From positions 30,132,001-30,196,000 of the forward strand of contig OZ024743.1 in assembly GCA_964016885.1 (NCBI GenBank): 64,000 nt of DNA, read 5' to 3'. The DNA comes from Eledone cirrhosa (Eukaryota). Under the pieces are notes generated by a model. The model did no database searches. It was not told the DNA's origin and saw only the letters and a list, made by a program, of their open reading frames with translations. Made by a program: the position numbers and the translations under genes. This document shows, one piece after another, positions 7,961 through 60,834 of this stretch. Positions within the stretch are counted from its first letter, which is position 1; every line of letters starts with the position of its first letter.

Positions 7961-7966
<6 letters not shown>

Positions 7967-8380: not shown

Positions 8381-8386
<6 letters not shown>
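7961..8386 (+). mobile_element. Non-coding foldback derivative of the PLE-2 pLTR (~190-bp arms + ~40-bp tail)
   Basis: 7961-8162 matches 15962-16163; 8162-8386 is the reverse complement of 15923-16147; flanked by (TA)n; variant HHRs at 8085-8121 (-) and 8187-8223 (+). Confidence 0.88.
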
Positions 8387-8444: not shown

Positions 8445-9560
8445 GTAGCAGCAGGATCCGGCGTTGCACAAAGTAGGAAACGTGAAATACAACAAGCATA
8501 TGCAAAGATTGATGAATGTAGCTGAGTACTTTTTGAATTCCTTTATTCTCAGGGAATGATTGTTCTTCTACCGGAAACGTAGAACACCAGCAGGGCTGAT
8601 TGTGGAAATCCTGTATGCAAAAGGAGTAAGTAAGTGTTGTGGGGCAATGTATGTCGTAAGTCTGTTCACGAATTACGTCACGGATTGGGAACACACGTCA
8701 GTCTGAAGGAGTGACGTAGTCAATTGTGTGAAAACCAAGTAGGGATGTACGTTTAAGTAGGGATATTGAGATGACGAAAACAGCGTGGCAACGCTGCTGC
8801 AGCAGCAGGGGGTCACAGTGCAATTAGCACAAACGCTCGGTGGCACTCGTTGCACTGCGTTTACACAGCAACAAAGGTGCGACTAAAGGGTTCAGTGCAG
8901 AATTAGCACAACCGCTGTTCGGTGTACTTGCGCATAATCATAATGCGGGGTTGGTGCACGAATCATCAACAGAGCCGGATTGGCAACGAATCATCAACAG
9001 AGCCGGATGAATGCACGAAGCGTCAACGGGGCGCCGACAAAAATGTTAAGGTCCTCATCATTTCCTCAATCTCCCCAAAATGGTCCTGCTTAAAAGTAAG
9101 TAATTGTTGTGTCCTCCGTTAAATAAACCAAATGTTTAACGAAATATTATACGCTACTTACCATGTTTAAGTAGCGTTTACATTGAACATGAAAATGGCT
9201 TGTAATGCTCAATATTAATTCTTAAAATTTCCTAGAAACCATTAATGGAATGGGAATTTATTTTGTCCACAGCAATGCGAGGTACAAACTAATGCGTGCT
9301 GAACATTTTGGGGAAATCGGTTGGATTATCTTTAAGTTACGCCTCAAAAAATCAGAAAATGACTAAAAAATACGGTTTTTCGCCTTTTGCGAGCCATAGG
9401 GGAGAAAATGTTATACATTCTTTAGCCAATTGCACTTCAAAAATATAATTAACGGATGTGTAAAGTTTGAAATAGATCGGTCGGGTACTTCTCGACTTAT
9501 AGGGATTTACACAGACAGACGGACACACACACACACACAGACAGACATCCTCTATTTTAT
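8443..9560. mobile_element. Probable non-autonomous Helitron/Helentron-type element
   Basis: Starts tagtagcagcaggatccggcgttgcac; ends gtgtaaagtttgaaatagatcggtcgggtacttctcgacttataggg...(acag)n...ttttatgtatg, resembling invertebrate non-autonomous Helitron ends; no transposase ORF. Confidence 0.45.
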
Positions 9561-9585
9561 GTATGTATGTATGTATGTATATATA

Positions 9586-9643
<58 letters not shown>

Positions 9644-10050
9644 CAAATAACGAAACAAAATTAAATTTTGTTTCGTTTGTTTCCGGCCTTTCTAGAGAAT
9701 CGTAAAAGCACATATCGTTATATGCTTTTTCTATGAAAATTAGTAGTGGGCAGACTAATTTGCATACATCTACATATGTACACGTGTGTGTATTCATATG
9801 CATACTAGTATTTCAGTATACATATGTGGATGTACATTTTGAACTTAATTGTTTAAGCGTCAGTCATACAAAAGTGAGTTACAAACGAAACAAAATTTAA
9901 TTTTGTTTCGTTATTTGTTTTTATCGTCTCCGCTGAACCGGTACGTACTCACGCTCTATGCAAATTAGTCTGCCCACTACTAATTTTCATAGAAAAAGCA
10001 TATAACGATATGTGCTTTTACGATTCTCTAGAAAGGCCGGAAGATAGGTA

Positions 10051-10095
10051 AATATTGCTGATGAGATGTAACAACATCGAAACTAGTCCAATATT
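10051..10095 (+). ncRNA. Canonical type-I HHR, array copy 1
   Basis: aatattg CTGATGA gatgt aaca acatc GAAAC ta GTC caatatt: 7-bp stem I, 5-bp stem II, palindromic ACTAGT stem III; predicted cleavage after 10088. Confidence 0.92.
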
Positions 10096-10516
10096 CCTTG
10101 TCTGGCTTTCTGGAGAATAGAGGAACGGTGTTTCCTCGAAAACCAGTATGACTCTAAAAACCGGTTTGTCTGTGTGTTTACATACAGAATAGCTGGACAC
10201 TCACAGTAAAGTGTCCAGTGAAAAACTCGGTACATCTACATATGTACACGTGTGTGTATTCATATGCATACTAGTATTTCAGTATACATATGTGGATGTA
10301 CATTTTGAACTTAATTATTTAAGCGTCAGTCATACAAAAGTGAGTTACAAACGAAACAAAATTTAATTTTGTTTCGTTATTTGTTTTTATCGTCTCCGCT
10401 GAACCGGTACGTACTCACGCTCTATGCAAATTAGTCTGCCCACTACTAATTTTCATAGAAAAAGCATATAACGATATGTGCTTTTACGATTCTCTAGAAA
10501 GGCCGAAAGATAGGTA

Positions 10517-10561
10517 AATATTGCTGATGAGATGTAACAACATCGAAACTAGTCCAATATT
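10517..10561 (+). ncRNA. Canonical type-I HHR, array copy 2
   Basis: Identical motif; predicted cleavage after 10554. Confidence 0.92.
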
Positions 10562-10982
10562 CCTTGTCTGGCTTTCTGGATAATAGAGGAAAGGTGTTTC
10601 CTCGAAAACCAGTATGACTCTAAAAACCGGTTTGTCTGTGTGTTTACATACAGAATAGCTGGACACTCACAGTAAAGTGTCCAGTGAAAAACTCGGTACA
10701 TCTACATATGTACACGTGTGTGTATTCATATGCATACTAGTATTTCAGTATACATATGTGGATGTACATTTTGAACTTAATTGTTTAAGCGTCAGTCATA
10801 CAAAAGTGAGTTACAAACGAAACAAAATTTAATTTTGTTTCGTTATTTGTTTTTATCGTCTCCGCTGAACCGGTACGTACTCACGCTCTATGCAAATTAG
10901 TCTGCCCACTACTAATTTTCATAGAAAAAGCATATAACGATATGTGCTTTTACGATTCTCTAGAAAGGCCGGAAGATAGGTA

Positions 10983-11027
10983 AATATTGCTGATGAGATG
11001 TAACAACATCGAAACTAGTCCAATATT
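10983..11027 (+). ncRNA. Canonical type-I HHR, array copy 3
   Basis: Identical motif; predicted cleavage after 11020. Confidence 0.92.
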
Positions 11028-11447
11028 CATTGTCTGGCTTTCTGGAGAATAGAGGAAAGGTGTTTCCTCGAAAACCAGTATGACTCTAAAAACCGGTTTG
11101 TCTGTGTGTTTACAGCAGAATAGCTGGACACTCACAGTAAAGTGTCCAGTGAAAAACTCGGTACATCTACATATGTACACGTGTGTGTATTCATATGCAT
11201 ACTAGTATTTCAGTATACATATGTGGATGTACATTTTGAACTTAATTGTTTAAGCGTCAGTCATACAAAAGTGAGTTACAAACGAAACAAAATTTAATTT
11301 TGTTTCGTTATTTGTTTTTATCGTCTCCGCTGAACCGGTACGTACTCACGCTCTATGCAAATTAGTCTGCCCACTACTAATTTTCATAGAAAAAGCATAT
11401 AACGATATGTGCTTTTACGATTCTCTAGAAAGGCCGGAAGATAGGTA

Positions 11448-11492
11448 AATATTGCTGATGAGATGTAACAACATCGAAACTAGTCCAATATT
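11448..11492 (+). ncRNA. Canonical type-I HHR, array copy 4
   Basis: Identical motif; predicted cleavage after 11485. Confidence 0.92.
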
Positions 11493-11740
11493 CCTTGTCT
11501 GGCTTTCTGGAGAATAGAGGAAAGGTGTTTCCTCGAAAACCAGTATGACTCTAAAAACCGGTTTGTCTGTGTGTTTACATACAGAATAGCTGGACACTCA
11601 CAGTAAAGTGTCCAGTGAAAAACTCGGTACATCTACATATGTACACGTGTGTGTATTCATATGCATACTAGTATTTCAGTATACATATGTGGATGTACAT
11701 TTTGAACTTAATTGTTTATATATATATATATATATATATA

Positions 11741-12240
11741 TAGATGACATTCTACAGGACTAGAACTGTTTCTATCTTTAGAAATCATCAGGAATCAGGC
11801 TTTCCAAAGGTAAATGTGGTATTTATATCTTTTCAGGTGGTAGGAGTGGGTGTGGAGTGGGATGGGTGGAGGTCATTGGTTGAAAGAAAAGGGAATTCAT
11901 TAAAAGCTAATTCTTTAAGGCTATAATTTATATTTAGAGTGGCAAAAGCAGAAAGAATTCTATAAACAAGTTCAGAATAGGGTGTTACTCCTTATTTTTA
12001 AGTTTCTCTTAAGCTAACAATGCCTATTTTCAGGTGTCTATAAGATGGTTGGGGGTCGGTCATGGTTGATGGATTTAAAGAAAAGGGAACTTCTTTAAAA
12101 GCTAATTCTTTAAAGCACTACTTAGAGTGACAAAGACCAAGAGAATTCTATAAACCATTTCAAAATATTGGATGCTTGTCATATCATTATTGTCATATTT
12201 CTCTTAAGCTATATTCCAGGTGTCAACAGACACATTCACA
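11741..12240 (-). mobile_element. Solo diverged relative of the PLE-3 3' pLTR, with HHR at 11749-11795
   Basis: Colinear with 13803-14325 with many substitutions; revcomp attc CTGATGA tttctaaagata GAAAC ag ttctagtc ct GTA gaat. Confidence 0.75.
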
Positions 12241-13655: not shown

Positions 13656-13726
<71 letters not shown>

Positions 13727-13808
13727 GTTATTCCGGGTTGAATCGGAGGTAACCACAGTAAGTAAGGTACTCAATACATAGCAGAGTATAACAGTTTTAA
13801 TATAGATG

Positions 13809-13859
13809 AGATTCTACAGGACTAGAACTGTTTCATTCATTAGAAATCATCAGGAATCT
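13809..13859 (-). ncRNA. Type-I HHR in the 3' pLTR of PLE-3
   Basis: Revcomp agattc CTGATGA tttc taat gaat GAAAC ag ttctagtc ct GTA gaatct; 6-bp stem I, weak stem II. Confidence 0.8.
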
Positions 13860-14399
13860 GGGTATCAAAAAATAAATATGGTATTTATAGGTCTCTACAA
13901 GTGGTAGGAGAGGGTGGGGAGTTGGATGGGTGCAGGTCATTGGTTGATAGAAAAGGGAATTCATTAAAAGCTAATTCTACAAAGCTATAGTTAATTTTTA
14001 TTTTTATTTATATTTATTTATGTTTTTAGAGTAACAAAGGCAGACAGAATTCTATAAACAGGTTCCGGATGGCATACCATTCCTTGTCAATAAGTTCCTC
14101 TTAAGCTAACAGATGTCTATAAAATCAGTGGGGGGTCAGTCAAGCTCGATAGAATTAAAGAAGAGGGAGATTCTTTAAAAGCTAAAGTCATTAAGGTTCT
14201 ACTAAGTGACAAAGGTCTAGGGAATTCTGCAGACAGATTCAAAATACTGAGTGCATATCTTACTATTATCTTCGAACTTCTCTTAAACTAATCAACAATA
14301 TGCCAAAATCAACAGACACATTCACAAAAAAACAAAAAAACAAAAAGACAAAAAAAAAACAGAAAAACAAAAAAACACACACAAAACAAAAAAACACAC

Positions 14400-14584
14400 A
14401 TACTCACTCACACACTTACGCGCAACCATAAACACACACACAAACACATATACACACATAAAAACACACACACACATATATAAAAAATATATAAATATAT
14501 ATAAAAATATATATTCATGTACACACACATACATACACACATACATACATACATATATAAAATACATATACACATATACATACG

Positions 14585-14632
<48 letters not shown>

Positions 14633-14675
14633 TATATATATATATATATACATATATACATATATATACAAACAC

Positions 14676-14719
<44 letters not shown>

Positions 14720-14763
14720 ACACACACACACATATATATACATATATATATATATACACATAC

Positions 14764-14828
<65 letters not shown>

Positions 14829-14990
14829 GACATACACATACATACACACACACACACATATATACACAAATAAATAGACTCACACGCATACATACAAACA
14901 CGAGTATACATATGTATAAATATCTATACACACACACATACACACACATATATATATACATATACATACACATATATATACATATACATA

Positions 14991-15048
<58 letters not shown>

Positions 15049-15085
15049 TATATATATATATATCTCTATACACACACATACAAAT

Positions 15086-15125
<40 letters not shown>

Positions 15126-15276
15126 ATACATACACAAACATACACATACATACACAGACCTATACATAAATATACACATATATATACAGACATATAACGC
15201 ACATATACACACACATATATACATACACATACATATACACATACATATACATATATATACATATATACATATATAC

Positions 15277-15343
<67 letters not shown>

Positions 15344-15366
15344 TATATATATATACATACACATAC

Positions 15367-15399
<33 letters not shown>

Positions 15400-15545
15400 C
15401 ACACACACGCGCATACACACATACACACACCCACACAAAATATATATACACACACACTCTCTCTCTCATGCACATATATATATATATATATATACATACA
15501 CACACACATACACACACACATACACATATATATACATATATATAC

Positions 15546-15588
<43 letters not shown>

Positions 15589-15673
15589 CATACATATATA
15601 TACATATATACACACACCTGCCCACACAATCATATACATATATATATATACATACATACACATATACATACAT

Positions 15674-15744
<71 letters not shown>

Positions 15745-15797
15745 TATACATATACACATATATATACATATATATATATACACACACACACACGCAC

Positions 15798-15832
<35 letters not shown>

Positions 15833-15891
15833 TACATATATACATATACACACATATATATATATATATATACATATATATACATATATAT

Positions 15892-15922
<31 letters not shown>
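14400..15922. repeat. Long compound (TA)/(CA) microsatellite, one of many TA, CA, GA and TAA tracts in the window
   Basis: Direct reading of the sequence. Confidence 0.95.
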
Positions 15923-15928
<6 letters not shown>

Positions 15929-16085
15929 AAAGAATAGAGGTGTAACACACAAGTTATTATATATTGGTAAACGGAATAGAAAATGCTGACAAATTGTTCA
16001 CAGTTGAAAAATGGTTTAATTAGGAATAAAAGAGTATTAGTGATTGTATGGGTTAGTATTCAGTTGTGGTTTTAAGTTTTTAAGT

Positions 16086-16122
16086 TTTTACCGGTTGCGC
16101 ATTTCTAAATGCTTTTCAAAAA
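16086..16122 (-). ncRNA. Variant HHR (UUGAAAA/GCAA core) in the inverted pLTR of PLE-2
   Basis: Revcomp ttt TTGAAAA gcatt taga aatgc GCAAC cg GTA aaa. Confidence 0.6.
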
Positions 16123-16473
16123 TAATTTTGAGATAGAGTGTCCGTGCTGTTTGCTCTGATCTGATTAGTTTTGGGAATTCTACCTGTTTTTATGTTAAAA
16201 AAATGGCTCCAGCGTTATTTTTGTGTTGCAAAAATGCTTGTGGTCAAAACAATTTTGATTGGTCGGTAGAGGTCATGTGAATGTAAAAAGTTGATTTTGC
16301 GCCAAGACTGTTTTTATGTTAAAATGTTAGAAAAGTGGCTCCAGCAAAAATTATGGTCAAAACAATTTTGTTTGGTCGACAAACTTGACTCCACAAATAA
16401 GGAAACCGCCACCGGATACAAACCCTCCGAAATCGGCGACAAACTCCAAAACCTTTGCGATACTATCCAAACT

Positions 16474-17595
16474 ATGTTCACTACTACCAACCCAGGAAAA
16501 ACCAACGAAGAACCATGTGAGATTGATTCACACAAAATGAAAATTCGAACAATTCCAAAATGGAACAAATCCCTCAGAGACAGAAAGTTCTCATTCTGGA
16601 AGATGATACAAAATCACAACAAAGCAGAGATATATGAAAAATGGCTTAACTCAACTCCTCTAACTCTCCCCCGTAAACTACAAATAAAGTCCATTCCAAA
16701 TGAACCCGAACCTCAAAGACACCTTAGGGAAAGAATGGCATTGGAAAAAATGAAGACAGAAATTGAACTTCTTAAACTGAGGGCCCAGACAAATGAGGAA
16801 AAAATCAAAACCATCGATGAAGAGATACTCCTGGAAATCAACAACAAAACTGAAGGCCCCAAGGTAGAGAAGATCTCCAAATTATGGAAAGGGGACTGCA
16901 ACAGAGAAGAACTGAAATCCCTTCAACGCTGGGAAAAAAGTGCCGCTTGGTTCCTACACTATGAATCGACTTTTCAAACGGATTACACCTCCAATAACCC
17001 GTTCATAAAAATAGGAAAACCCATAACTGAACCGCACAACAACTTCTCAAACCCCCAAGCCTCAAACAAACGAAGAAGGAAGCATCACACCGAAGATGAA
17101 CTTCCCAACCTCGCTACCATAAGAAGGAACAAAAACCCAAGAAATCATCTCCCCCAGAATGACATTTACAACTTTCCCCCTTCAAGGAGACACCATACCA
17201 AATCACTCAACTACTACGCGGATTCCTCATCGTCAAACATAGGGAAAAGATACCACCGCCATGATAGATGCAACAACTTCCCCGCCTCAAGGGGACAGCA
17301 AGGTAATTACCATTTTCTCAACTCTCACTTCCACAATACACAACAAACCCACACCACACGATACAACCAACAACGTAGGCCACTTATAACACCACAATAC
17401 AACATGGCACATAGAAACACACACCCATACTCCCAGTACAGGAACACCCCATTCAATCTACAACCACCAACCCGAACCACATTTTACAACAACAAGGAAT
17501 ATAACAAACACAGGAGACCACTTAACATCAGCAGACAACCCCTCTACCCCAACCATTTTTTAGACACAGCACACAGATACAGGCAAACAAAATAA
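16474..17595 (+). CDS. PLE-2 ORF1: charged, coiled-coil-like N-part and basic His/Asn/Arg-rich C-part; true start uncertain
   Basis: Open frame (RERMALEKMKTEIELLKLRAQTNEEKIKTIDEEI); the track start at 16291 lies inside the inverted pLTR; first ATG outside it is at 16474. Confidence 0.65.
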   Translation: MFTTTNPGKTNEEPCEIDSHKMKIRTIPKWNKSLRDRKFSFWKMIQNHNKAEIYEKWLNSTPLTLPRKLQIKSIPNEPEPQRHLRERMALEKMKTEIELLKLRAQTNEEKIKTIDEEILLEINNKTEGPKVEKISKLWKGDCNREELKSLQRWEKSAAWFLHYESTFQTDYTSNNPFIKIGKPITEPHNNFSNPQASNKRRRKHHTEDELPNLATIRRNKNPRNHLPQNDIYNFPPSRRHHTKSLNYYADSSSSNIGKRYHRHDRCNNFPASRGQQGNYHFLNSHFHNTQQTHTTRYNQQRRPLITPQYNMAHRNTHPYSQYRNTPFNLQPPTRTTFYNNKEYNKHRRPLNISRQPLYPNHFLDTAHRYRQTK

Positions 17596-19880
17596 CACAA
17601 GACAGGGAGGAGAAACCGATAGTAATAAAAATTATCAATCTTACTAGTGCAGAACCAACACCCAACCTTATCAACTTACTCTCCAAAGGTCTTAAATTCA
17701 CACCGACCCCACTACGTCCTAACTACTATGAAATGAAGGAAGACATCACAGACTTCTGTAGAAAGTTACGACTTAGTGAACAACTATTCGACCAGTACAA
17801 TGAGGATGAATCATTAGCCAGAAATAGAAGCAATTACACCCCTTCAAAAGGTAGAAATAAAATCCTGGACGAATTCTGTGAACACATCACAAACTTCCCT
17901 TACCAACACTTGCACAGACAAAAACACAAGCCAAACCTCAACAAGAAAGAATGGGAAGAATTAAATAGATTAAAAACCGACAGAACCATTACAATTAAAG
18001 AGGCTGATAAAGGGAGTACAGTAGTCCTAATGGAGACATAATTCTATATCAACTTAGCGCTCTCCACTTTGGAAAACGAAACATACTACGAAAAGGCTGA
18101 ACACTACAATCAACAGAAAATTATGAGAAACCTAAAAGCTCTAATCAACCAATACAAAGAAGGACTCACTAACAAGGAATTCAGCTTCATCACAGACTTC
18201 ACAAGTAAATCCAGCCTTTTCTACGGTATCCCTAAAGTACATAAAAGCGAATCAATCAGTAAGGCATGCAAGGAAGCCACAGACATAGTCATCAATGTCC
18301 CCTCACCCAATGATCTCAAATTAAGACCTATAATAGCAGGCCCCGCTTGCGAAACGCACCGTCTTAGCAACTTCATTGATACCCTTCTCAAACCCTTCCT
18401 CAAGCACATCAAAAGCTATATAAGGGACGACCTAGATATGCTCAATCACCTCCCTATTATGCCACTTTCTGAACAAACCCTACTAGTGACGTTCGATGTA
18501 GTCAACCTATACTCCAACATCCCCCACAACCTAGGAATAGAAGCTATCCAATTCTGGCTGGATAACTTCCACAATGAACTCCCACAACGCATCAAAAAAG
18601 AATTCGTGATAGAGGGACTCAAATTTATCTTGGAGAACAATTACTTCGTTTTCAATAACAAACCCTACAGACAGAAATCTGGGACCGCTATGGGAACGAA
18701 AACAGCCCCTACGTATGCCAACCTAGTCATGGGATACCTGGAAATCACCCTCTACACTAAAGTCCTAAACAAATTTGGAAACACCCTCCACTTACACATT
18801 GAAAGGAACTGGAAGCGATATCTTGATGACTGCTTCATCCTTTGGCACGAAAACATCGAAAAACTTAAAGAATTTCACACCCTTATAAATGGGCTCAACA
18901 CAAATATTAACTTCACGATGGAATACAGCCATCAACAACTCCCCTTCCTCGACATCCTCATTAAGATCCATAACAAAAAAATAGAAACAGACATATACTA
19001 CAAGCCCACAGACTCCAAGCAATACCTCCCCTTCAACTCTTGCCACCCTAGACACGTTAAAATTAATATTCCCTACAACTTAGCCAAGAGAATCTGTACT
19101 ATAGTCTCCAATAAAAACATCTGCTACTTACGGCTACAAGAACTAAAGGACACACTCATAGGCAGGGACTACCCTGCATCACTAATTGACAATGGAATCC
19201 AACGTGCCCTAAAACTCAGTACCCAGGACCTTAGACACCCTAAAGTAAATCAACCAAAACTAAAAGCTCTTCCATACATCTCCACACACAACCCCCTCAA
19301 CAACGAGGCCTTTGACACCATCCTCCAGAACATCCCTGTATTGAAAAAGGACCATAGAATGAACCAAATTCTACGAACACACGATATCATAAAGAGCAAA
19401 AGACAATCCAAGTCAATGAAAAACATCTTAACACATGCCAAAGTACTGCCAACCACAACAACGAAACCCACAGTAAAAAAATGCGATAGACCCAACTGTG
19501 GCATTTGCATCAACCTAATAGAGGGTTCGGAATTCTATTTCAAAGATGGACAACGTTTTATAGTAAAACACAATTTCACATGTGCATCGGAAAATGTAAT
19601 ATATGTATTAACTTGTTCAGGTTGTCGTGAACAATACATAGGCCAGACCAAAAACAGCCTCCGCCAACGCATGACTGTCCATAGATCCCAAATTAAAATA
19701 CGGGAATACAGGAAAATACCACTGAGTGAACACATTGATACCTGCGCCGCCCAAAATCATCCCAACTTCAGAATCTTTCCCCTCTACAAATTTAAAGATA
19801 ATGCCACCCACACCCAGCGCATCAGCAAGGAATCTTACTTCATTAACAAATACGGACCCCGTCTAAACACTTCTCCCTAA
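17559..19880 (+). pseudogene. PLE-2 RT + Cys knuckle + GIY-YIG frame with one premature TAA (18039-18041)
   Basis: INL..LSKGLKFTPTP, EADKGSTVVLM, FYGIPKVHK, LRPII, FDVVNLYSNIP, GTAMGTKTAPTYANL, RYLDD, FLD, CDRPNCGIC, NVIYVLTC..C..QYIGQT, GPRLN. Confidence 0.92.
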
Positions 19881-20061
19881 GACGAACCCACAACATACAC
19901 ACGTCAACATACATACCTACATCAGCACACATCTCTACCCACATATAAACACAATGACACACGTAAACACACATGCTCTATGGTGCAATACAAAAAAATA
20001 TGTGTGCATATATATGTATGTATATATGTATATATATATATGTGTATGTGTAGTGAAAATA

Positions 20062-20101
<40 letters not shown>

Positions 20102-20486
20102 GTGAATATCATTTCACACCTTTTATTGTTAAGATTGTTGATGTTCTATTAAGAGAACCGATTTTACTGAAAAAATCGAATAATGTACACCATTTTACCA
20201 GGGGGGAAAAAATACTGGTCCACCCACACACGCACACACACACACGCACGCGTGTATGCACAAACACATACACACGCGTACATCAACATACAAAGAGACT
20301 TATACACACACACACACACGCACTTCTCCGTATAAGACAAAAGCTGAAAAATATCTTTTGACCTTCGAATGACTCTGCTGTGTGTATGTACGCACACACA
20401 CACACACACACACACTTATCTTAATAGCCATTTGACACACATCGCTGGTGGCTATTGTCGCAGCATCGAACACCTTACTACTACTA

Positions 20487-20520
<34 letters not shown>

Positions 20521-20841
20521 TTGTTGTGAAAGAGTCATTTCTCAATCTTGGCGCAAAACCAATTTTTTATCCACATGACCTCTACCGACCAATCAAAATT
20601 GTTTTGACCATAATTTTTGCTGGAGCCACTTTTCTAACATTTTAACATAAAAACAGTCTTGGCGCAAAATCAACTTTTTACATTCACATGACCTCTACCG
20701 ACCAATCAAAATTGTTTTGACCACAAGCATTTTTGCAACACAAAAATAACGCTGGAGCCATTTTTTTAACATAAAAACAGGTAGAATTCCCAAAACTAAT
20801 CAGATCAGAGCAAACAGCATGGACACTCTATCTCAAAATTA

Positions 20842-20878
20842 TTTTTGAAAAGCATTTAGAAATGCGCAACCGGTAAAA
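20842..20878 (+). ncRNA. Variant HHR (UUGAAAA/GCAA core) in the 3' pLTR of PLE-2
   Basis: ttt TTGAAAA gcatt taga aatgc GCAAC cg GTA aaa; compensated U3-A8, A13C, palindromic ACCGGT. Confidence 0.6.
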
Positions 20879-20996
20879 ACTTAAAAACTTAAAACCACAA
20901 CTGAATACTAACCCATACAATCACTAATACTCTTTTATTCCTAATTAAACCATTTTTCAACTGTGAACAATTTGTCAGCATTTTCTATTCCGTTTA

Positions 20997-21039
<43 letters not shown>

Positions 21040-21120
21040 TTACATACATACACACATAATACATATACATGCATACATATATATATATATATATACATAC
21101 ACACATACATATATATACAC

Positions 21121-21156
<36 letters not shown>

Positions 21157-21297
21157 ACACACACATACTTATACACATATATATACACACATATACACAC
21201 ACATACATACATACACACATACACAGACATATACATAAACATACACACACACATACACACGTATACATACATACATACATACACATACATACACACA

Positions 21298-21347
<50 letters not shown>

Positions 21348-21444
21348 CATACATATACACAAACACATACATACATATACATACAAAAATATACACACAT
21401 AAAACATAAAACACATATACACACAAACATATATATACACATAC

Positions 21445-21477
<33 letters not shown>

Positions 21478-21504
21478 CAGATACACACACATATATATAT
21501 ACAT

Positions 21505-21562
<58 letters not shown>

Positions 21563-21749
21563 ATATACATATATATATACACACATACATACATACATAC
21601 ATATACACAAACACATATACACACATACATACATACATACATATACACAAACACATATATACATATACCTACATAAATATACACACATAAAACACATATA
21701 CACACAAACATATATATATACATATATACATATATATATATATACATAT

Positions 21750-21796
<47 letters not shown>

Positions 21797-22014
21797 TACA
21801 CATATACACATATACAAACAAATATATACACATACAAGTAAATAGGTACTCAATAAATATACGCATATACACAGGCACATAAAGACACCTCTACAGGCAG
21901 AAAATGTAGATACGAAAGAGGTACTCACATGACCATAGTGGCCGTATTTCAGGTTGAGGAGGGGTGGGGGTAGGGTGGGGAGGAGGTATAGGGCCCAGTA
22001 GGGGGAGGTCGTTT

Positions 22015-24156
22015 TTAGCCATCGGGCTTTAACACTGGCTTAAAGTGTTTGAATGTTGCAAAGTTCTTGTGCATGCAGTTCGGGCAGTGTTCAGAGAGTT
22101 TGTTCAGTAGCGGGCCCTTGGCGAATAAAATTTCGTAGCTCTCTGAAATACAAAGGTCGCAGCCCTTGTGTCCTCCGTTGTAAGAGCGCGCTTTCTGGAG
22201 TAATTTCCAATTAAGCGTGAAGGGGGTGGAGTTCCTTTTGAGGTCCCAAACGTAGGAGGCGAGTGTTGTTTGATTTGATTTATCCGGTCTTCTGAAGGAG
22301 TGGGTATGGGCATACCAGCGGGTCTTAAAGGTGTTGGAGGTCATGCCGATGTAAGTTTTTTTGCAATCCTCGGTGCCCGAGATGACATCGCATTTGTATA
22401 CGATGTCATTTGTGAGGCATTTGTTTTCTAGTGGGCATGCTTCCTTATTTAGGCAATTACATAGAGCCCCAGTCCGGGGATTGGTTTCGGAGGTGGTTGG
22501 CTTATTTAGTTTAGAGTTGTGGTTGGCTATATTCCTAGCTAGGTTAGGTGTGGTGGAGTAAGAAAGTCTTATAGTGTTCTTATTAAAGATGGTGTAGTAC
22601 CTATGTTGTATGGGGAAGTGTAATTTCAGTAAAGTGAAGAAAATCCTAGCTATCGGAGTAGATACCTCTCTATTGAAGGGAGGGTTGTACCAGCTAATCT
22701 GCCTATGTCTATTCCTCCTCTGCAATTTTGCGGTGGTTTCTAGGTAAGTTATCTTATCTTTAAATCCGCTACGGGCTAGGGCGTCATTGTAGTAGGAGGC
22801 AGATGCATTAAAAATATCTTTGTTGGCGGAGAGGCCAGATATTCTAATAGAGACGCTTTTTACTAGGTTATCAGTAATGTTTTGGGGGTGGTTTGAATTA
22901 ACATTAATATATTTAAGGGACTCATTAGGTTTGTGGTACGGGTAATAGAGGGAAGTATCTAGGTCGAGAGTGACATCTAAGAAGTTGGCCCTAGTCAAAT
23001 TAGAATCTATAGTTATACTAAATCCTAGATTAGAGAAGAAAGAGCTTAAGTTTTTCCGAAACCCATCGGTGGTTCTGGGGCTAACCTTATGCAGGGCGAA
23101 GAGGCCGTCGTCTCGGTATAAACCTCCAGTTAGGCCGGTAAAGAGGTTCTTCAGGTTATGTAGGATGTACAGGCCCACAAGGTCGCTAATTTCAGCCGAG
23201 TCACTCGCCCCCATGCTAACGTCAAATGGGGTCTGAGATTTCTTGTTGATCCAGTAAGATCCATCGTGGTATAGAAAGGTCTTACGAGCGTGGAGGATAA
23301 TAACTTGCTCGGCATCGGTAATGGTGGTAAAATTCCTGGCAAAGTTAATTGCGTCCTTCAGGAGGGGCTCCGAGATAGAGGCATAGTAGTTTTCTATGTC
23401 GAGTTGCAGGAAGCGAGTGTGGTGTTTATCGGGTAATTCTCGGAACCATGATATTGCCTCAGATGTTCTACTCCAGAGTGGAAGTGATGAGGCCGCCCGC
23501 AGTAATGGTAGAACTCTATCCAGGATCTTCTTACTGATAGAGCCGATGTCAGAACGAGTGGGGTTGATAAGTCTGACTGATGGTTTGTTGAGGAAATTTC
23601 CCTTATGGTCCTTCAGGGTAAAGTGCGGGGTCTTTACCCTTAAAGGTTAGGTTCGGTCATGTAATTTAAGGGACTTGGCGATTTCTTTTCCGGCCGCGTT
23701 TGTCTCAGTCAGCGCCCTCTCTATTACCTTTTTGTAGGTGGTCGTGATGGTATTTTTTGCCAGCTTATTGTAGGTCTGTGGGTCTACCTCATAAACGTTT
23801 TTGGTTTTATCGGAGGAGACATAAAGATTAGGGGATTTTTTTATATTCCGTAATTCGGCATTTAAGTAGGCCTGGAATGGTGTGGTGGCTCTACGGAATT
23901 TAATATCCTTGATCATCTTGAAGAGGTCTTCCTCAAATGGTTGGAGTAGGCTGTTGGTGGGTGGTGTCTTATTCGTTTTGAAGCCGAACTTCTCATCATT
24001 GGTAGATGCTACATCAGGGTTGTCGAGGAAGAAAGCCCTCCATCTAATTCGCTTGATGAACTCGTCGGTACGTCTGATGAGTGTTTTTAAGTATAGTTTC
24101 CTTGGAGGGATAGGGATGTTCTTCAAGGAAATATCAAGGTCGAGTTTGGTCAGCAT
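22015..24156 (-). pseudogene. PLE-3 polyprotein (713 codons; RT + GIY-YIG, Hydra-clade-like) with one in-frame TAA at 23647-23649
   Basis: SLKNIP, RWRAFF, FTLKDHK, LDIENYY, MGASDSAEISDLVG, GLYRDDGL, FLDVT, WYNPPF, CNC..CPL..CL, IVYKC..YIGMT..FKTRW, CDLC..E, LLNK; frame otherwise open by manual translation. Confidence 0.92.
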
Positions 24157-24246
24157 TGTTTCTTGATGATGGTTATAAGGGGCACAGAGAGTGCTAAAAT
24201 GTACGTTATTCCGGGTTATAAATACCATATTTATTTTTTGATACCC

Positions 24247-24297
24247 AGATTCCTGATGATTCCTAATGAATGAAACAGTTCTAGTCCTGTAGAATCT
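24247..24297 (+). ncRNA. HHR in the inverted 5' pLTR piece of PLE-3
   Basis: agattc CTGATGA ttcctaatgaat GAAAC ag ttctagtc ct GTA gaatct. Confidence 0.75.
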
Positions 24298-24337
24298 CAT
24301 CTATATTAAAACTATATATATATATATGTATGTATGC

Positions 24338-24734
24338 AAAAGTTCTATTTAAAATTGTTGGGATATAAATATTTTATAACTGATATAAAGCACTCGACAA
24401 GTTTTTGGAGTAGATATACGATATTAATAAATGGAAACTATATTTATAAAACCATATTTATTTCATTATACATATTTCAGGGATACCAAATTAAAATATA
24501 GTATGCCTTCATCAGACAAAATACAATATATAAACAGTTTTATAAATAATTTTGACGTACCCTATTAAATGCAACCATTATTTTTGTCTGATTATTATTG
24601 TATTTTGTCTGATGAAGGCATACCATATTTTAATTTGGTATTCCTGAAATATGTATAATGAAATAAAGATGGTTTTATATATATAGTTTCCATTTATTAA
24701 TATCGTATATTAATAAATGGAAACTATATTTATG
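24338..24734. mobile_element. Foldback mini-element with an HHR in each arm (24461-24521 on -, 24603-24663 on +)
   Basis: Arms 24414-24528 and 24596-24710; ttttgt CTGATGA aggcatacca tattttaatt tggtattcct GAAAT atgt ATA atgaaa, overlapping AATAAA. Confidence 0.82.
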
Positions 24735-25065
24735 CGAGCAATGAACGTTGATGTGGGTTTAACCCCCAAAACTCTTTCCGAGCAATATAAGGAACACTTT
24801 TGATTATTTATGCCCTTGAGAAGCCCAACTGGGCGAAACGTACTATAGTGCTATTTTAAACAAACGTGTTTTAACGGTCTATTCTCCGATTTTTTACTTT
24901 TCCACGTGCTTACGCTCTGCTAACTCCCTAACCCACTAAATATTAACACTTCGAATATTTAATACTGCCGGCACTAGTATCGAGCGCCTTTGGCATACGC
25001 TACTTGGCAAATAACTATATGTATCACCTATCCTCCCCTTTTTTCTCTTTCTCAATACGTAAATA

Positions 25066-26491: not shown

Positions 26492-26494
<3 letters not shown>

Positions 26495-28648: not shown

Positions 28649-28691
<43 letters not shown>

Positions 28692-28862
28692 GGAAAAGAT
28701 GAAACGAAATTTCATTTCTCTCTCTTAGTGCAGCTGTTACTTAAAGAGTTTATTATAATAAATATTCGGTAAATCCATACGTACATATATATATGTGTGC
28801 ATGTATCTATATACATACATACTACTATAACGTCTGTATACATATATGTATGTACGTATACA

Positions 28863-28919
<57 letters not shown>

Positions 28920-28928
<9 letters not shown>

Positions 28929-29728
28929 TAAAAAAATAATGAATAAAACAATGAAACAGTTCCTTATATTAAACAAAACAAGTTCATTATTTAACGATCG
29001 TTTCTGGGATATATATGTGTTAGAATTGGCATGTATATTTAACAGATCTATGTACAAAATTATACAAAATTATACAAACTATCAAAATTAAATATACATA
29101 CCAACTCATATATATGCCGTCTTCAGAAATAATGAAATATATTTATTGATAATAACAACAATTCAAAATTACAGGTCTGTTTGGGAACAGAGTTCAAATT
29201 GACCAATGGAAACACAAAAAGTTTATACAGTTAGGTGTGTGTATATATGTAAGTAACTTCGTTCACAGATATGCATAAAAATATATGTTCACATGCATAC
29301 GCATGCCGAAAAGATGTATGTAAATACAAAAATTCAGGGCTAATGTCTCTGTATGTTTATAATCTACAGATAAAATACATATACGCATATAAACATATAA
29401 ATATAAAAATAAATATATACACATTCATATACTCACACATATACATACATTCACACACACACGCGCATATACGCATAAACATACACACAACCACGAACAT
29501 ACATACACACACACACTCACACACACATATATGTGTATATACTATTATCATAAGCATATGGACATTAATGCGCGCACATAAACATTGCCACACATATTTA
29601 GATCCAGATACAGAAAGTAGGTGGGGGGGGGGAAGAGGTCAGTATTTACTGGTGTCAGCAAACTGCCTATTTATAAATGTATCTATAAATTTAGAAATAA
29701 AAAGAAAAAGAAAAAAGAAAAATATTAA

Positions 29729-29770
<42 letters not shown>

Positions 29771-29796
29771 AAGTAAAATATAAAATATACATCGAT

Positions 29797-29871
<75 letters not shown>

Positions 29872-30514
29872 CATATACATACACATATACATAAACACAT
29901 ACATACACATACATATACATACACACACCATATATATACACATACACATACACACACGCGCATACATATAGAGACACATACATATACACATATAAATACA
30001 TAGACATATACATATATACACACATATATATATATATATATATACACACATACATATATACATACATTCAAACAGACCTGTAATATATATATATATACAC
30101 ATACATATATACATACATCCAAACAGACCTGTAATTTTGAATTGTTGTTATTATCAATAAATATATTTCATTATTTCTGAAGACGGCATATATATGAGTT
30201 GGTATGTATATTTAATTTTGATAGTTTGTATAATTTTGTATAATTTTGTACATAGATCTGTTATATATACATGCCAATTCTAACACATATATATCCCAGA
30301 AACGATCGTTAAATAATGAACTTTTTTTGTTTAATATAAGGAACTGTTTCATTGTTTTATTCATTATTTTTTTAATATTTTATCTTGACTCTGTATTCCG
30401 TTTATCTTACACCGAAAGTGATTTTTCATTGCATCTCTTCTTTCCATGATATCCGGATTACATTGAGTTCTTCATACGGATTGGACACTACCGTAAACTC
30501 TTGGTAGATTTATC

Positions 30515-31079: not shown

Positions 31080-31776
31080 ATAAAATGTGGAGAGGATGCA
31101 CACCAGTTAGGATATGAAAACAGTGAGAAAGAGAAGATTATGAGGAAGAAAATATATTTTTTTCCGTTTTTGTGTGTGTCTCTTTTTTTCTGGGTTAGAA
31201 AATGATTAAAACGAAATGTTTTACTTTATGTGAAGTGTTAAGGTATTACTTGATTTCTTTATTATTTAACAATGGCATTTATTTATCTATTTATCTATTT
31301 AATTATTGTCTCTGACCGGTTTCAGCATTTATATGCATTATAAATGATAGTGACATGTATTAGTGTGGTGTCGCATGTGTTAAACAGAAGGTGCAGAAAG
31401 AATAATGTTATTTATAAACAAGGTTTAAGAAGTGAAAAAAAAAAGAAAAAGGAAAAAAAAAACGTGTATAATGTGGAACTTAAAAAGTCAATGTGGAAGA
31501 AAAAATAATGTTATTTACAAGCACAGTCATAGAAGTTAAGCAGATCAAAATGTATTAATACAGCAAGAGTGCTTAGTTGAACCATGGTTCCGTGATGGAG
31601 GAAATAAATGCCATTGTTAAATAATAAATAAATCAACTAATACCCTAACACTTCACACAAAGTAAAACATTTCGTTTTAATCATTGTCTAACCCAGAAAA
31701 AAGAGAGAGAGAAACAAAAAAGGAAAACAATAAATTTTTCTTCCTCATAATCGTCTCTTTCTCACTGTTTTCATAT
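31079..31776. repeat. Inverted-repeat element (~173-bp imperfect arms) between TA tracts
   Basis: 31112-31284 approximately revcomp of 31602-31776. Confidence 0.75.
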
Positions 31777-48996: not shown

Positions 48997-49202
48997 TGTT
49001 ATACTTTGGGAGGGTCAAGTTGCCAATAGGAAACACACGCACCAGTGTTCCACTTCAATTTATTATAATACATTTTTCAACACACGTTTTCAGATAAAGA
49101 ATCTTGCTAAACAAATTCAGAAACGAAATATATATATATATATATATATATAAAATAAAAGAAATAAAATAAATAAATAAAATATATATATATATATATA
49201 TA

Positions 49203-49741
49203 TAAAATAAAATAAAATAAATAAGTCAAATGTTTAAAATTTCGCTTCGTTTATTACTGCTATATATATTTCGGTGAGAGCCATCTTTGGCCGTGACCTC
49301 TTCAGACAGTCCAAATTAATGTGGTAGAGACGAGTACACATGTTGTTGAGGTGAATAACTTTGTCAATACTCTGATATGTCCAGTTCCTGGTTGGGTTGT
49401 TATTTCTCTGAGGAACATATGATTCCAGTTCCTCAGTGAAATAACAACACAACCAGGAACTGGGCATATCAGAGTATTGACAAAGTTATACACCTCAACA
49501 ACATGTGTACTCGTCTCTACCACACCAATTCGGACTGTCTGAAGAGGTCACAGCCAAAGATGGCTGTCACCGAAATATATATAGCAGTAATATACGAAGC
49601 CAAATTTTAAACATTTGACTTATTTATTTTATTTTATTTTAATTTACATTACTCTGGAGTAACCAAACCAACCTACGCACTTCGTCGAGGTCTCCAATCT
49701 GCATACTGAGGTTTTTGGTATACAACGAACATATACTCAAA

Positions 49742-50810: not shown

Positions 50811-53800
50811 CTAACAGTGCTGCGATCGAATGTGGCTCTTTAGCCCAGCCAATGATCTAAAATGTCTTGCACAGAGTCGGCAACCAAAACATTCACTGGG
50901 AATAGTCGGCTGTGGTTGGAGTTCGTGTACTTTTGCATGTCGCTTGAGCCCTCCTGCTGATTTACATTCTCTACCACATGTTTGGCAAGCATGATGAGTA
51001 GCATCTCCAACAGCAGCCTGGTAGTCAACCACTGGTCTTACTTTATGACTGCGAAGATGACTTTCGAGTCCAGCTTTGCTTAGGCAGAGTCTCGCACAGA
51101 CGCAGCATGTCAGAACCATAGGAGGACCCTCGCCGTCTGGAAGTGCAACAGCAATGCCCTTCCTCACGTCCCGATTTACTTTCTCGTGTGCGATTCGAGA
51201 TGCCTCAAAGGCAACTTTTCCCTCATATACAGTCTTTCTCCATTTATTACGATCAGCAGCAATATTTTCCCATGTATCAGCAGAGATGTTAGCGTCTTTC
51301 AGAGAGGCTTTCAAGGAATCCTTATACCTCTTTTTGGGTTTATGTGGCGGTCGTTTTCCTTTAACCAACTCTCCATAGAAGAGTTGTTTTGGTATTCTAG
51401 AATCCTTCATCCTGGCAAGGTGACCACTCCAACGGAGTCGTTGCTTAAGCACAAGAGATTCTATACTGTCACACATAGAGCTTTCCAAAGTCTCAACATC
51501 ACTGATGTGGTCCCTCCAGTGAACGCCATGGATCCGTCTGAGACACATCTGATGGAAACGCTCCAATTGCTTAAGGTGGCGTCGATATGTGACCCAGGTC
51601 TCGCAGGCATAAAGAAGACAAGAGAGTACACATGCCCTGTACACCTTTACCTTTGTCCTCCTGCATATGTCTCGCCGACCCCAGAGTCGCCTTTCTAGCT
51701 TTCCGAAAGCATCACTTGCTTTCCTAATCCTAAGTGAGATTTCACTGTCAAGGTTGCCGTAACGATTGACAGTGCTTCCCAGGTAGACAAACTGATCAAC
51801 CACTCCAAATCGTTTGCCATACACATAGATGTTTGGTTCAGTGTACTGCTTACTAGGGGCAGGTTGGTACATGACGACGGTTTTCTTGAGACTGACAGTC
51901 AAACCCAGGGCAGTGCAAGCGTCAGAAAATACATTCAAAATGTGCTGCATATCACTCTCTGTGTGCGCTACAAGATCGCAATCATCTGCATACAAGAGGT
52001 CTCTTATGACTGATGTAAATACTTTTGACTTCGCAGCAAAGCGCCTGATGTTAAATATGCTGCCCGAGGTTCGATATCGGATGTAAACACCATGCTCGCA
52101 ATTCCTGAATGCAATACAGAAAACCATTGCAAAGTATATGGCAAACAGGGTCAGTGCTGGAATATCCCCCTGTTTCACTCCATTTTTTTACTGAGATAGG
52201 CTCCGACATGTTACCTCCGACATTAACCCAAGCCTTCATGTCGTCATGGAAAGACCTAACTAAAGCAAGGAACTTATCAGGGCAACCAAGTTTCTAGAGA
52301 ACCTTCCATAATACATCTCTGTTGACAGTATCGAAAGCCTTTGTCAGATCGACAAAAACCTGATACAGATCCAAGCCCTGTTCAATGCACTTCTCCTGGA
52401 GCTGTCTAGCTGAGAAGATCATATCAGTAGTGCCGCGTCCAGCACGAAAACCAGATTGACTTTCAGGAAGGACACAATCTTCAATGTGTGTCAGCAGACG
52501 GTCCAGAAGCACCCTACATAGAACTTTCCCTACGACAGAAAGCAATGATATACCTCTGTAGTTCCCACAATCATTCCTGTTACCCTTTCCCTTGTACAAG
52601 ACCACCATTACTGCTTCTCTCCAGTCCTCAGGCACGGATTCATTAGCCCATATCCTTCCAAACAGAGAGTGAAGATGTTGCAGGAGTCTCTCACCACCAT
52701 ATTGTAGGAGCTCAGCATGTATGCCATCCATACCTGGAGATCTTCCACTGTTCAGCTTCGAAATAGCCACTGCAACCTCCACAAGCGTCGGAGGTTCTGC
52801 GAGAGCTACTTTCACAGGACTTTCCGGAATGAGATTGAGGAAATCTTCACTGACGACAGACGGCTGATTCAAAAGATCATCAAAGTGCTCTCGCCACCTT
52901 CGTAGAATTCCCTGTGAGTCACGAAGAAGTTCTTTGCGATCCTTGCTGCGAATCGGTGTCACCAGAGAAGAAGACGGTCCATAAACCTCACGCAAGAGAC
53001 TGTACAACAGCTTTGTGTTATTGCAATCAGACGCAGTTTGTATCTCACCAGCCTTCTCACTCCACCACTGATCCTTCATCTGAGAAAGACTCCGCCTAAC
53101 ACGTGATTTTACATCCCTGAGCTCCTCATGCAACGTATTCCTCTCCTGTGGTTTTGCCGTCAAGTAGCGTGACAGAGCTCGCCTCTTATCAGCCAACAAG
53201 TCTTCTATATGTACATCATTCTCATTAAACCAGTCCTGATGTTTTCTCTACACCAATCCCAGAACACGTCTTCCTACATCATAAACCGACTTTTTAAGGG
53301 TCGGCCAATCCTCACCAAGATCTGCAGCCTGCATCTCTTCTTCCAATGTCCTCTTCACATTTTTATCCTTAAGACGAGCAGCATTCAATCTTTTGGGCAG
53401 GGTAACACCAGGAGCCCGGATTTTACGTTTGGTGATTAGATTCACTTTTGCGCGTACCAGGCGGTGGTCCGTCCAGCACTCAGCTCCACGAAGAACACGA
53501 ACACACTGCACATCCTGTCTGTCACGCATCCTGACTGGGACGTAGTCCAAAATATGCCATTCCTTAGATGCAGGATGCATCCATGTGGTCTTGAATTTGT
53601 TCTTTTGTTGGAACATGGTGTTGGTAACACACAGATCCAGCTCCTCACACATCTGCAGCAAGAGCATACCATTGCTGTTACACTTTCCCACCCCATGCCT
53701 TCCGATTACATTCCATGTGTTAAAATCCCTACCCACTCTAGCATTAAAGTCACCAAGCACGATGACTTTGTCTGCCTGAGGGATATTACTTAGAACACCT

Positions 53801-54230
53801 TTCAAGGCATGGTAAAAGGACAGTTTTTCTTCATCGACAGAATTCATAGTTGGAGCATACACACTCACCAGGGTAGCATATCTTCCCTTGTCCAGCGGAA
53901 CTCTCATGGACATAAGACGCTCACTAATCCCTACTGGGAATTCTTCTAATTTATTCACCAGTGCAGTCTTAACAGCAAATCCTACCCCAGCCTCTCTTCT
54001 GGTTCCTTCATCTCTTCCTTTCCAGAAGAATGTATATTCTCCACAAAATTCCGTAAGATGACCATCTCCAGCTAACCTGGTCTCAGATAAAGCCACGATG
54101 TCAAGATCGTAACGTCGAAGCTCCTTTGCAACAAGAGCGGTCCTTCGTTCAGGACGCTCCAAAGAATCCCTGTCAAGCAGCGTCCGTACGTTCCAGCAGC
54201 CAAGACTAAATGCCCTGTTTGGCTCTATTA
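50811..54230 (-). mobile_element. RTE (BovB-like) LINE, disrupted ORF: APE endonuclease + RT + three C2H2 fingers; (GT)n tail
   Basis: LGCWNVRTL, ALSETR, GVGFAV, SVYAPT, LGDFNARVG, TDHRLV, NYRGISLL, QSGFR, FVDLTKAFD, KQG, LYADD, YLGS, LRWSGH; stops at 53248 and 52294, frameshift near 52185. Confidence 0.92.
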
Positions 54231-54424
54231 CAATGGCACGATGACGGGCGGGCCCAGGTTGTGATAACTTGGGGCTCCTGCCCTTATTGCCAATGATCTT
54301 TTTTGTTCCAGAACCCAAATTGGCAATTATCTCGTTTACATTGTTCTGGAACATCATTGAAATTGAAAAAAAAAAGTAATAATAATAGTAATAATAATAA
54401 TAATAATAATAATAGTACACTATT

Positions 54425-54720
54425 AATAATTATTAATGCACTCGTGCAATGCCTGTGCGTGACGAATATTTTTAAAGTGAGGAAAGACTGTGCACTGAGC
54501 CAATCCCACTCTCTGAGCGACAGTAGCTATAACCCGAAAAGAAGAAAAGATCAACATCATCGGTAACTACTGAGCCGCAGGTTTTATATCGGAGTTAACC
54601 CAGTTTCCTGAGATGCCTTCTCCTAGAAGAATACCCTGACAAGGGCTAGGGGTTCTTCACTCCCAGTGGTTTAACTGCGCGATCGGGCATCCAGCTCGAT
54701 TATTTCTATGTCCCCGCGCG
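54425..54720 (-). mobile_element. RTE-type 5' UTR segment
   Basis: Similar to 33885-34075; upstream of and co-oriented with the RTE ORF, separated from it by a (TAA)n tract. Confidence 0.5.
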
Positions 54721-60500: not shown

Positions 60501-60834
60501 AGATGGACATTGGAAAAATGTGGAAATTGAGAACTAAAACAATAGCAGTGGTTGTGGGCGCTCTGGGAAGGATACCTAAGGGGTCTAATGATTATTTATC
60601 GCAAATCCCAGGAAACCCACGTATAGGAGAAATACAAAAGATAGTACTAATGGGAACTGCCCATATACTAAGGAAGATTCTGTCAATATAAGTACATCAC
60701 AAGTCTAAACACTAAAGATGCATGTGTGAGTATGTGTGTTCTTTCTTGAACATGGCGGACCTTGTTGTCTCTTGAGGTCACTGGTTGTGACTTGATGATA
60801 ACTCGTATGAACATAAAGCAAGATAAATGCAACT

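Follow-up and report, generated by a model that had tools for sequence, protein, structure and literature searches.

A non-coding hammerhead repeat in the genome of Eledone cirrhosa is probably inserted in trans by the reverse transcriptase (RT) and endonuclease (EN) of a Penelope-like element (PLE), which primes both DNA strands on one RNA and uses one start site for each strand. We give this reading a probability of roughly 75%. The insertions have two fixed ends, A and B, and follow a rule of one of each. They lie in TA repeats, and their two arms have a common haplotype and independent lengths. The same rule is found in autonomous PLEs. PLE-type trans-mobilisation of this retrozyme is well supported by the footprint. 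The footprint touches two open questions, the identity of the enzyme that moves animal retrozymes and the origin of the inverted, one-tailed insertions of PLEs. It is countable in a young, protein-free family with a 466-base unit and about a thousand insertions. One start site per DNA end, arms from the same source and arms that are not mutual copies favor twin priming, rather than the fold-back and resolution routes proposed in print. The short RNA of the family and an intact candidate enzyme make the idea directly testable.

The window analyzed is a stretch of 64,000 nucleotides. It contains a plus-strand tandem array at 9765-11718, called as 4.2 copies of a 466-bp unit with 99% matches. The units differ from one another at 1-6 positions. 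Unit position 1 is window 9765, and the reference unit is window 9765-10230 (466 bp). No open reading frame of at least 120 amino acids is found within 9637-11718. A motif scan indicated that the hammerhead core is retained in 4/4 full units. The type I motif of unit 1 is located at 10051-10095 on the plus strand, with a very short stem III of 2 pairs and a predicted cut after 10088; the cores of the other units begin at 10524, 10990 and 11455. An Rfam search was empty across the window, with no hammerhead match at the gathering score. Stem I of the hammerhead varies yet stays pairable in two related families, as judged by eye, and the related families represented by L132 and L200 have retained both the hammerhead and the sequence near site B. 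The predicted monomer fold of the unit has a z of -9.8, and 0/100 shuffles are as stable.

The repeat is widely dispersed. The 31-base hammerhead core has 1,633 exact matches in the genome. The junction pattern for site A (unit 83-91 followed by TA) has 575 forward matches, while the 1,155 matches counted in reverse include repeated entries and overstate the number. The strict pattern for site B (unit 160 followed by AT) has 66 matches in the genome, and reversed-pattern controls for both gave 0. We estimate the family at about 1,100 insertions. Their arms range from less than one unit to about 16 units, or from monomers to multimers. Tandem, non-coding, dispersed and highly self-paired, with a predicted type I hammerhead, the 466-base repeat has the sequence features of a non-LTR retrozyme. 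An octamer-like ATGCAAAT is located at window 9958-9965 (unit 194-201) and at L132:1638-1645. It is retained in families 1 and 2, to which the window copy and the L132 copy belong, and has one base changed in family 3. Newt satellite 2 has an internal snRNA-type promoter, and the octamer-like motif of the retrozyme may be part of a promoter of this type.

In the window, the array is preceded by a short inverted head. A first-pass annotation had described this head as inverted segments of 44 and 86 bp before the tandem units, all within (TA)n, and the match is exact. On the minus strand, 9637-9680 is the reverse complement of unit 117-160 (44/44 bases) and 9681-9766 that of unit 193-278 (86/86 bases). 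Perfect matches of this length to the 466-bp unit far exceed chance. The pieces had also been called out of order, but this appearance depends only on the point chosen as the start of the tandem unit. In minus-strand orientation, the head consists of the first 86 and the last 44 bases of a contiguous 434-nt stretch, unit 193..466,1..160, from which 304 nt are missing. The pieces are collinear apart from this skip, which is blunt and without microhomology. The head is not a pair of scrambled pieces but a single, short second arm interrupted by a skip. It meets the long arm head to head at 9765-9766, where the 86-bp piece and the forward array overlap by 2 bases (TA).

Both outer ends of the window copy are in (TA)n tracts, called at 9558-9639 and 11717-11742. 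The short arm ends at 9637 on fixed end B, the tail end, and the long arm ends at 11718 on fixed end A (unit 91). The window copy thus obeys the A+B rule. In unit 1 the tail between the two ends covers 9856-9924 on the plus strand (unit 92-160) and contains a predicted 13-bp hairpin at unit 117-148. The left target tract, (TA)n/(TATG)n, covers 9558-9636. The right tract, 11719-11742, also adjoins an older PLE-3-like copy, which begins at about 11743 with its tail-less end (86% identity between 11718-11827 and 24327-24217 by self-BLAST).

Could the 130-bp head result from chimeric assembly or from a rearrangement of the local DNA alone? Both of its junction 20-mers are unique among the fetched loci (absent from the others among L001-L145), and no listed contig or read of the four public runs covered, out of 23 listed, crosses either joint. 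However, the runs carry other alleles than the assembly, so the absence of the joints is uninformative. The outer end of the head falls exactly on the fixed end B of the family and completes the A+B rule, and comparable skips are found in L055, L085, L130 and L136. We consider an artifact or a local rearrangement to have a negligible chance of being correct. The 44+86 layout is a minor irregularity. A template jump may account for the 304-nt skip, as may a later deletion, but neither accounts for the inverted arm itself. An RT jump would be the somewhat likelier origin of the skip, and a later deletion in the palindrome the somewhat less likely one.

Tabulating other copies, as the first-pass annotation had suggested, gave much stronger evidence than the single locus. 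Three sets of loci were fetched. The first comprises 35 regions chosen as the best matches at the DNA level, together with the window. The second comprises 40 of the 66 site-B junctions, taken in list order with 4 already included skipped. The third comprises 39 site-A junctions from contig C1, taken as they were listed, and the hand-picked L145, both ends of which are in the site-A list. In all, 80 loci were chosen by a TA junction at one end, 40 of these on a single contig. Four rows cut by the limits of the fetched region (L038, L053, L054 and L106) and two segmental duplicates (L037) were left out, giving 113 insertions. Copies with both arms of at least 22 bp were scored as two-armed. They make up 77/113 insertions, and another 8 have stub arms.

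The outward 3' ends are at two sites about 70 bases apart in the unit. Among 190 such ends, 92 are at unit 83-91 (site A) and 96 at 157-160, plus 161 as listed (site B), with 91 ends exactly at unit 160. The sole 3' end outside these ranges, in L032, is an A end behind an internal deletion. The first-pass annotation had explained the inverted segments as a 5' inversion generated by template switching. Their outer end is instead a fixed end of the 3' type, at unit 160, as seen in 66 exact junctions in the genome and 91 mapped ends. The 5' ends of the arms are not enriched at the predicted hammerhead cut, with 7/199 within 15 nt. Their best 10-nt window, unit 111-120, holds 14 ends (p 0.03) and is confounded by the tail hairpin. 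A separate candidate hotspot of 5' truncation at unit 187-193 is not significant (10/199 ends at 180-194).

Pairing of the two ends is nearly strict. The script assigned A+B to 74 of the 77 two-armed copies, and L032 was added by eye (75/77); the remaining two are A+A and none is B+B. This differs from 50:50 pairing with a p of 1e-18. Of the two A+A copies, L145 was hand-picked and L129 is a four-piece compound. Copies chosen by their B end have A opposite in 25/25 cases, and copies chosen by their A end have B opposite in 30/32. The one-armed copies follow the same pattern: 8/36 carry a 10-15-bp stub of the opposite end and 0/36 a stub of the same end. By eye, L053 and L054 together form one further B+A copy, and the L132 copy of a related family is also A+B.

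The 3' ends are also marked by their targets. (TA)n adjoins 181/190 3' ends and 9/36 truncated 5' ends, in a sample that includes the 80 loci chosen by TA junction. For PLE-type insertions, target duplications of about 8-13 bp are expected. Informative flanking repeats are found in 13/113 insertions, compared with 3.6% in mismatched pairs, and only those of L062 lie outside a periodic tract. This copy (L062:2175-5179) is a rare insertion outside a microsatellite and has a clear target duplication of about 11-13 bp. Four family-1 copies (L039, L057, L058 and L059) are located inside or beside TA-rich parts of older retrozyme copies, and the elements nest mutually.

Predicted folds near the two sites were compared among the families. 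In family 1, a small hairpin is predicted at window 9841-9862 (unit 77-98), and site A occupies its 3' strand and its AT loop of 6 nt. In family 2, site A is at a comparable predicted hairpin (L132:2046-2066). Families 1 and 3 allow a bulged hairpin immediately 3' of site B, whereas family 2 folds otherwise; none of these folds is more stable than those of shuffled sequences (z 0.4 to -0.8). A similar hairpin of PLE-3 is located 5' of the PLE-3 B end.

Sequence comparison of the arms indicated that both arms of one insertion come from the same source haplotype. In the 62 insertions with arms overlapping by at least 100 nt, mean arm-to-arm divergence is 0.6%, compared with 3.5% to the arms of other insertions, and it is lower in 62/62. 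Partner arms have 467 of 531/543 variants in common. Units within a single arm differ to the same extent (0.7%, 84 arms). The family contains many coexisting haplotypes, with a median distance of 2.9% to other arms.

Two other origins could give such common haplotypes: one source locus that supplied two transcripts, or gene conversion that made the arms alike. In the first case, a PLE would prime both ends on two separate RNAs of the same locus, and the asymmetry would be set by the protein and not by one bound RNA. This would explain how 66/68 B arms pass site A, since on one RNA the cDNA of the other arm must be displaced, and conversion or a single active source could yield the common haplotypes. 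However, partners match in 62/62 despite the many coexisting haplotypes. In L048, L123 and L142, unit-specific variants keep the same register in the two arms, which is weak evidence because two of the sites are CpG and conversion is possible. In addition, B arms stop in the first 85 nt more often than A arms (14/96 versus 5/93, p 0.051). We consider two RNAs quite improbable, and prefer priming of both strands on one RNA.

Common haplotypes are also expected if the second arm is copied from the first. After a single priming event, the RT would fold back or switch template onto the new cDNA, and the endonuclease would trim the product at the second fixed site. A self-priming model (PMC3846280) and EN-mediated resolution (PMC8557442) have been proposed for PLEs. 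Among the 68 simple A+B copies, the A arm could derive from the B arm in 40 and the B arm from the A arm in 9. Each of these 49/68 copies, like the window locus, would on its own fit copying of one arm from the other. At the window locus, the long arm includes the sequence of both head pieces. In 3/68 copies, the 5' ends of the arms map no more than 1 nt apart. In the other 19/68 copies neither arm contains the other, for example in L073 (A 357 nt, B 79 nt). These 19 copies exclude fold-back as a general route, and with it the template switching by which the first-pass annotation had explained the inverted arm. Containment of A in B is at the level of chance, with 40 cases compared with 36.8 +/- 2.4 after shuffling arm lengths. 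The lengths of A and B arms are uncorrelated (rho 0.19, p 0.12), and their 5' ends are mostly far apart in the unit, with a median of about 110 nt. Overall, fold-back is an unlikely source of the second arm, and priming at both A and B on one RNA remains our preferred explanation.

The arms also bear on the form of the template. Both arms exceed one unit in 20/68 copies and B arms extend past site A in 66/68, indicating that the template is circular or multimeric, or is repeatedly re-engaged. In 21 long arms, 135/175 variable sites are single-unit and 40 are recurrent, some with periods of 2-6 units. These recurrent variants (L106, L130, L136, L140 and L052) are equally explained by multimeric circular templates or later duplications. 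The minor allele is common to both arms at 13/147 variable sites, in 4 loci. At the 70 central joints we found overlap in 53, a blunt junction in 6 and extra bases in 11, with the overlaps inflated by BLAST ends. Skips within an arm were seen by eye in about 5/77 two-armed copies (the window copy, L055, L085, L130 and L136). In three of these the break in the B arm comes after 31-44 nt and lies within the tail hairpin.

The autonomous PLEs of the window have the same architecture. The first-pass annotation had assigned 5' inversions and TA targets to PLE-1 to PLE-4, and each of them indeed consists of two opposed arms ending in (TA)n. If a mini copy of PLE-2 is counted, the window holds five PLE insertions, and in 5/5 both ends are in (TA)n, one with the tail and one without. 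PLE-1 has A at 1690, B at about 7540 and a tail of about 107 nt. PLE-2 has B at 15925, A at 21002 and a tail of about 35 nt, and its mini copy has A at 7963 and B at 8385. PLE-3 has B at 13726, A at 24314 and a tail of 68 nt (68-72). PLE-4 has A at 26492, B at about 28648 and a tail of about 82 nt. PLE-3 spans 10.6 kb (13726-24314), and PLE-2 (15925-21002) is nested in a microsatellite-rich stretch between the PLE-3 ORF and terminal repeat. The structural argument for trans-mobilisation in the first-pass annotation, a non-coding hammerhead repeat in (TA)n with PLE architecture, is supported.

We also considered a LINE-type enzyme acting by ordinary twin priming. Other non-LTR RT frames are present in the window. 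L1 twin priming yields head-to-head arms, and L1 twin-primed arms are not known to overlap in sequence. Retrozyme arms, in contrast, do overlap. Furthermore, both retrozyme ends are fixed and internal, without poly(A) or a 3' repeat, and the one-of-each rule is found in the PLEs of this genome. A LINE-type enzyme is very improbable, and the evidence points to a PLE.

PLE-3 is a candidate for the partner enzyme. Among 20 PLE-3 loci, 8/8 paired ends in view are A+B. The family has uninterrupted frames of 758 amino acids, its copies are 98-99% identical and its target is (TA)n. Motifs identified by eye on P0001, by comparison with PMC8557442, are DKT, a CxCX5C linker, CxxC, CxH, a C-terminal GIY-YIG and an RWR variant of RWK. 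PLE-3 also has a hammerhead-like motif. DKT, the CxCX5C linker, CxxC, CxH, RWR for RWK, the hammerhead-like motif and the (TA)n targets are as in Hydra-clade PLEs (PMC8557442). By these motifs PLE-3 appears to be a young Hydra-type family. With Pfam, PLE-3 gave only GIY-YIG, at an E of 0.077, and a PDB sequence search with it gave nothing useful.

PLE-3 and the retrozyme have no sequence in common. Comparison of the unit with 30 PLE-3 loci and the window gave low-complexity matches only, and no homology. Among 30 GIY-YIG loci, a small sample of more than 10,000 candidates, the only match is a neighboring retrozyme. No pLTR or tail homology was found between the unit and any PLE in this set (the window PLEs, 30 PLE-3 and 30 GIY-YIG loci). 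A PLE partner with homology to the retrozyme may exist beyond the sampled loci. The retrozyme tail of 69-77 nt is close to those of PLE-3 (68-72) and PLE-4 (about 82) alike.

PLEs were previously proposed to mobilise metazoan non-LTR retrozymes (PMC7229834, Cervera and de la Pena 2020; bioRxiv 10.64898/2026.07.22.740005, Li, Clavereau and Pollet 2026). The Eledone cirrhosa retrozyme resembles the elements in these two papers. Its tandem unit is AT-rich and non-coding, measures a few hundred bases and carries a single type I hammerhead motif, and its copies, from monomers to multimers, are dispersed through a PLE-rich genome. Its 466-bp unit is above the 150-450 bp range of PMC7229834 and within the 51-972 bp of bioRxiv 10.64898/2026.07.22.740005. 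In the latter, 8/9 predicted elements were reported not to cleave. The two papers based the mobiliser on co-occurrence and pLTR homology, whereas our evidence is an insertion footprint and no pLTR homology was found. The inverted arms, tails and junctions present in the Eledone cirrhosa retrozyme are absent from the main texts of both.

Similarities to insertions of EN+ PLEs (PMC8557442; PMC3846280) are head-to-head arms, a one-sided tail, (TA)n targets and microhomology at the inner joint. Unlike these, the retrozyme has no ORF, its arms are multi-unit arrays and its tail is about 70 nt rather than 30-40. The tail is described in these papers as optional or "often only at one end", whereas it is nearly strict in the retrozyme (75/77). 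The Poseidon PLE protein of Anolis cuts and extends both strands in vitro and has two adjacent internal RNA start sites bounding the tail (PMC11167929, Frangieh et al. 2024). The retrozyme resembles this system in its two adjacent internal starts bounding the tail, its AT-rich target, ends unrelated to the hammerhead cut and a predicted dimer. However, the start site in the in vitro experiments described did not differ between strands, whereas the genomic retrozyme copies imply one site per strand within an event. Our counts do not match that lack of strand difference unless pairing within an event is constrained (PMC11167929). The element type and the architecture are each already known. No description of strict A+B pairing or two-armed retrozymes, or of the same-template evidence, was found in a literature search that covered subscription journals thinly.

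In the mechanism we propose, the 466-base unit would be transcribed and self-cleave, probably giving a circle or multimer. A PLE protein, probably dimeric and probably from the Hydra clade, would bind the tail region and nick both strands of a TA repeat. One 3' end would prime at B and the other at A, with pairing of 1-3 bases at most. Each RT would then proceed through successive units by strand displacement and halt at a random place. The two cDNA ends would join head to head, often at short microhomology. At the window locus, the B arm would have skipped 304 nt after 44 nt and halted at 130 nt, and the A arm would have continued for 4.2 units. We are inclined, with modest confidence, to extend this mechanism to PLEs in general. 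They may integrate by obligate asymmetric twin priming, in which one dimer and one RNA assign A to one strand and B to the other and both polymerases then roll round a circular or multimeric template. Animal retrozymes would be minimal parasites that need the two-site tail and not pLTR homology, and the "optional tail" and "5' inversion" of PLEs would be one event.

Several other elements are found in the window. A short two-armed copy of a related retrozyme family is located at 28689-28860, between TA tracts and directly past the PLE-4 tail. Two small head-to-head elements at 24428-24740 and 49126-49560 carry motifs resembling the hammerhead on each strand (24515/24609 and 49305/49539). Two sets of inverted repeats flank TA tracts, one of 265 bp (99%, 28920-30383) and one of 175 bp (92%, 31112-31776). 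Three broken LINE-type non-LTR RT frames, at 50811-54429, 58559-60691 and 61135-63144, are unrelated to the retrozyme finding.
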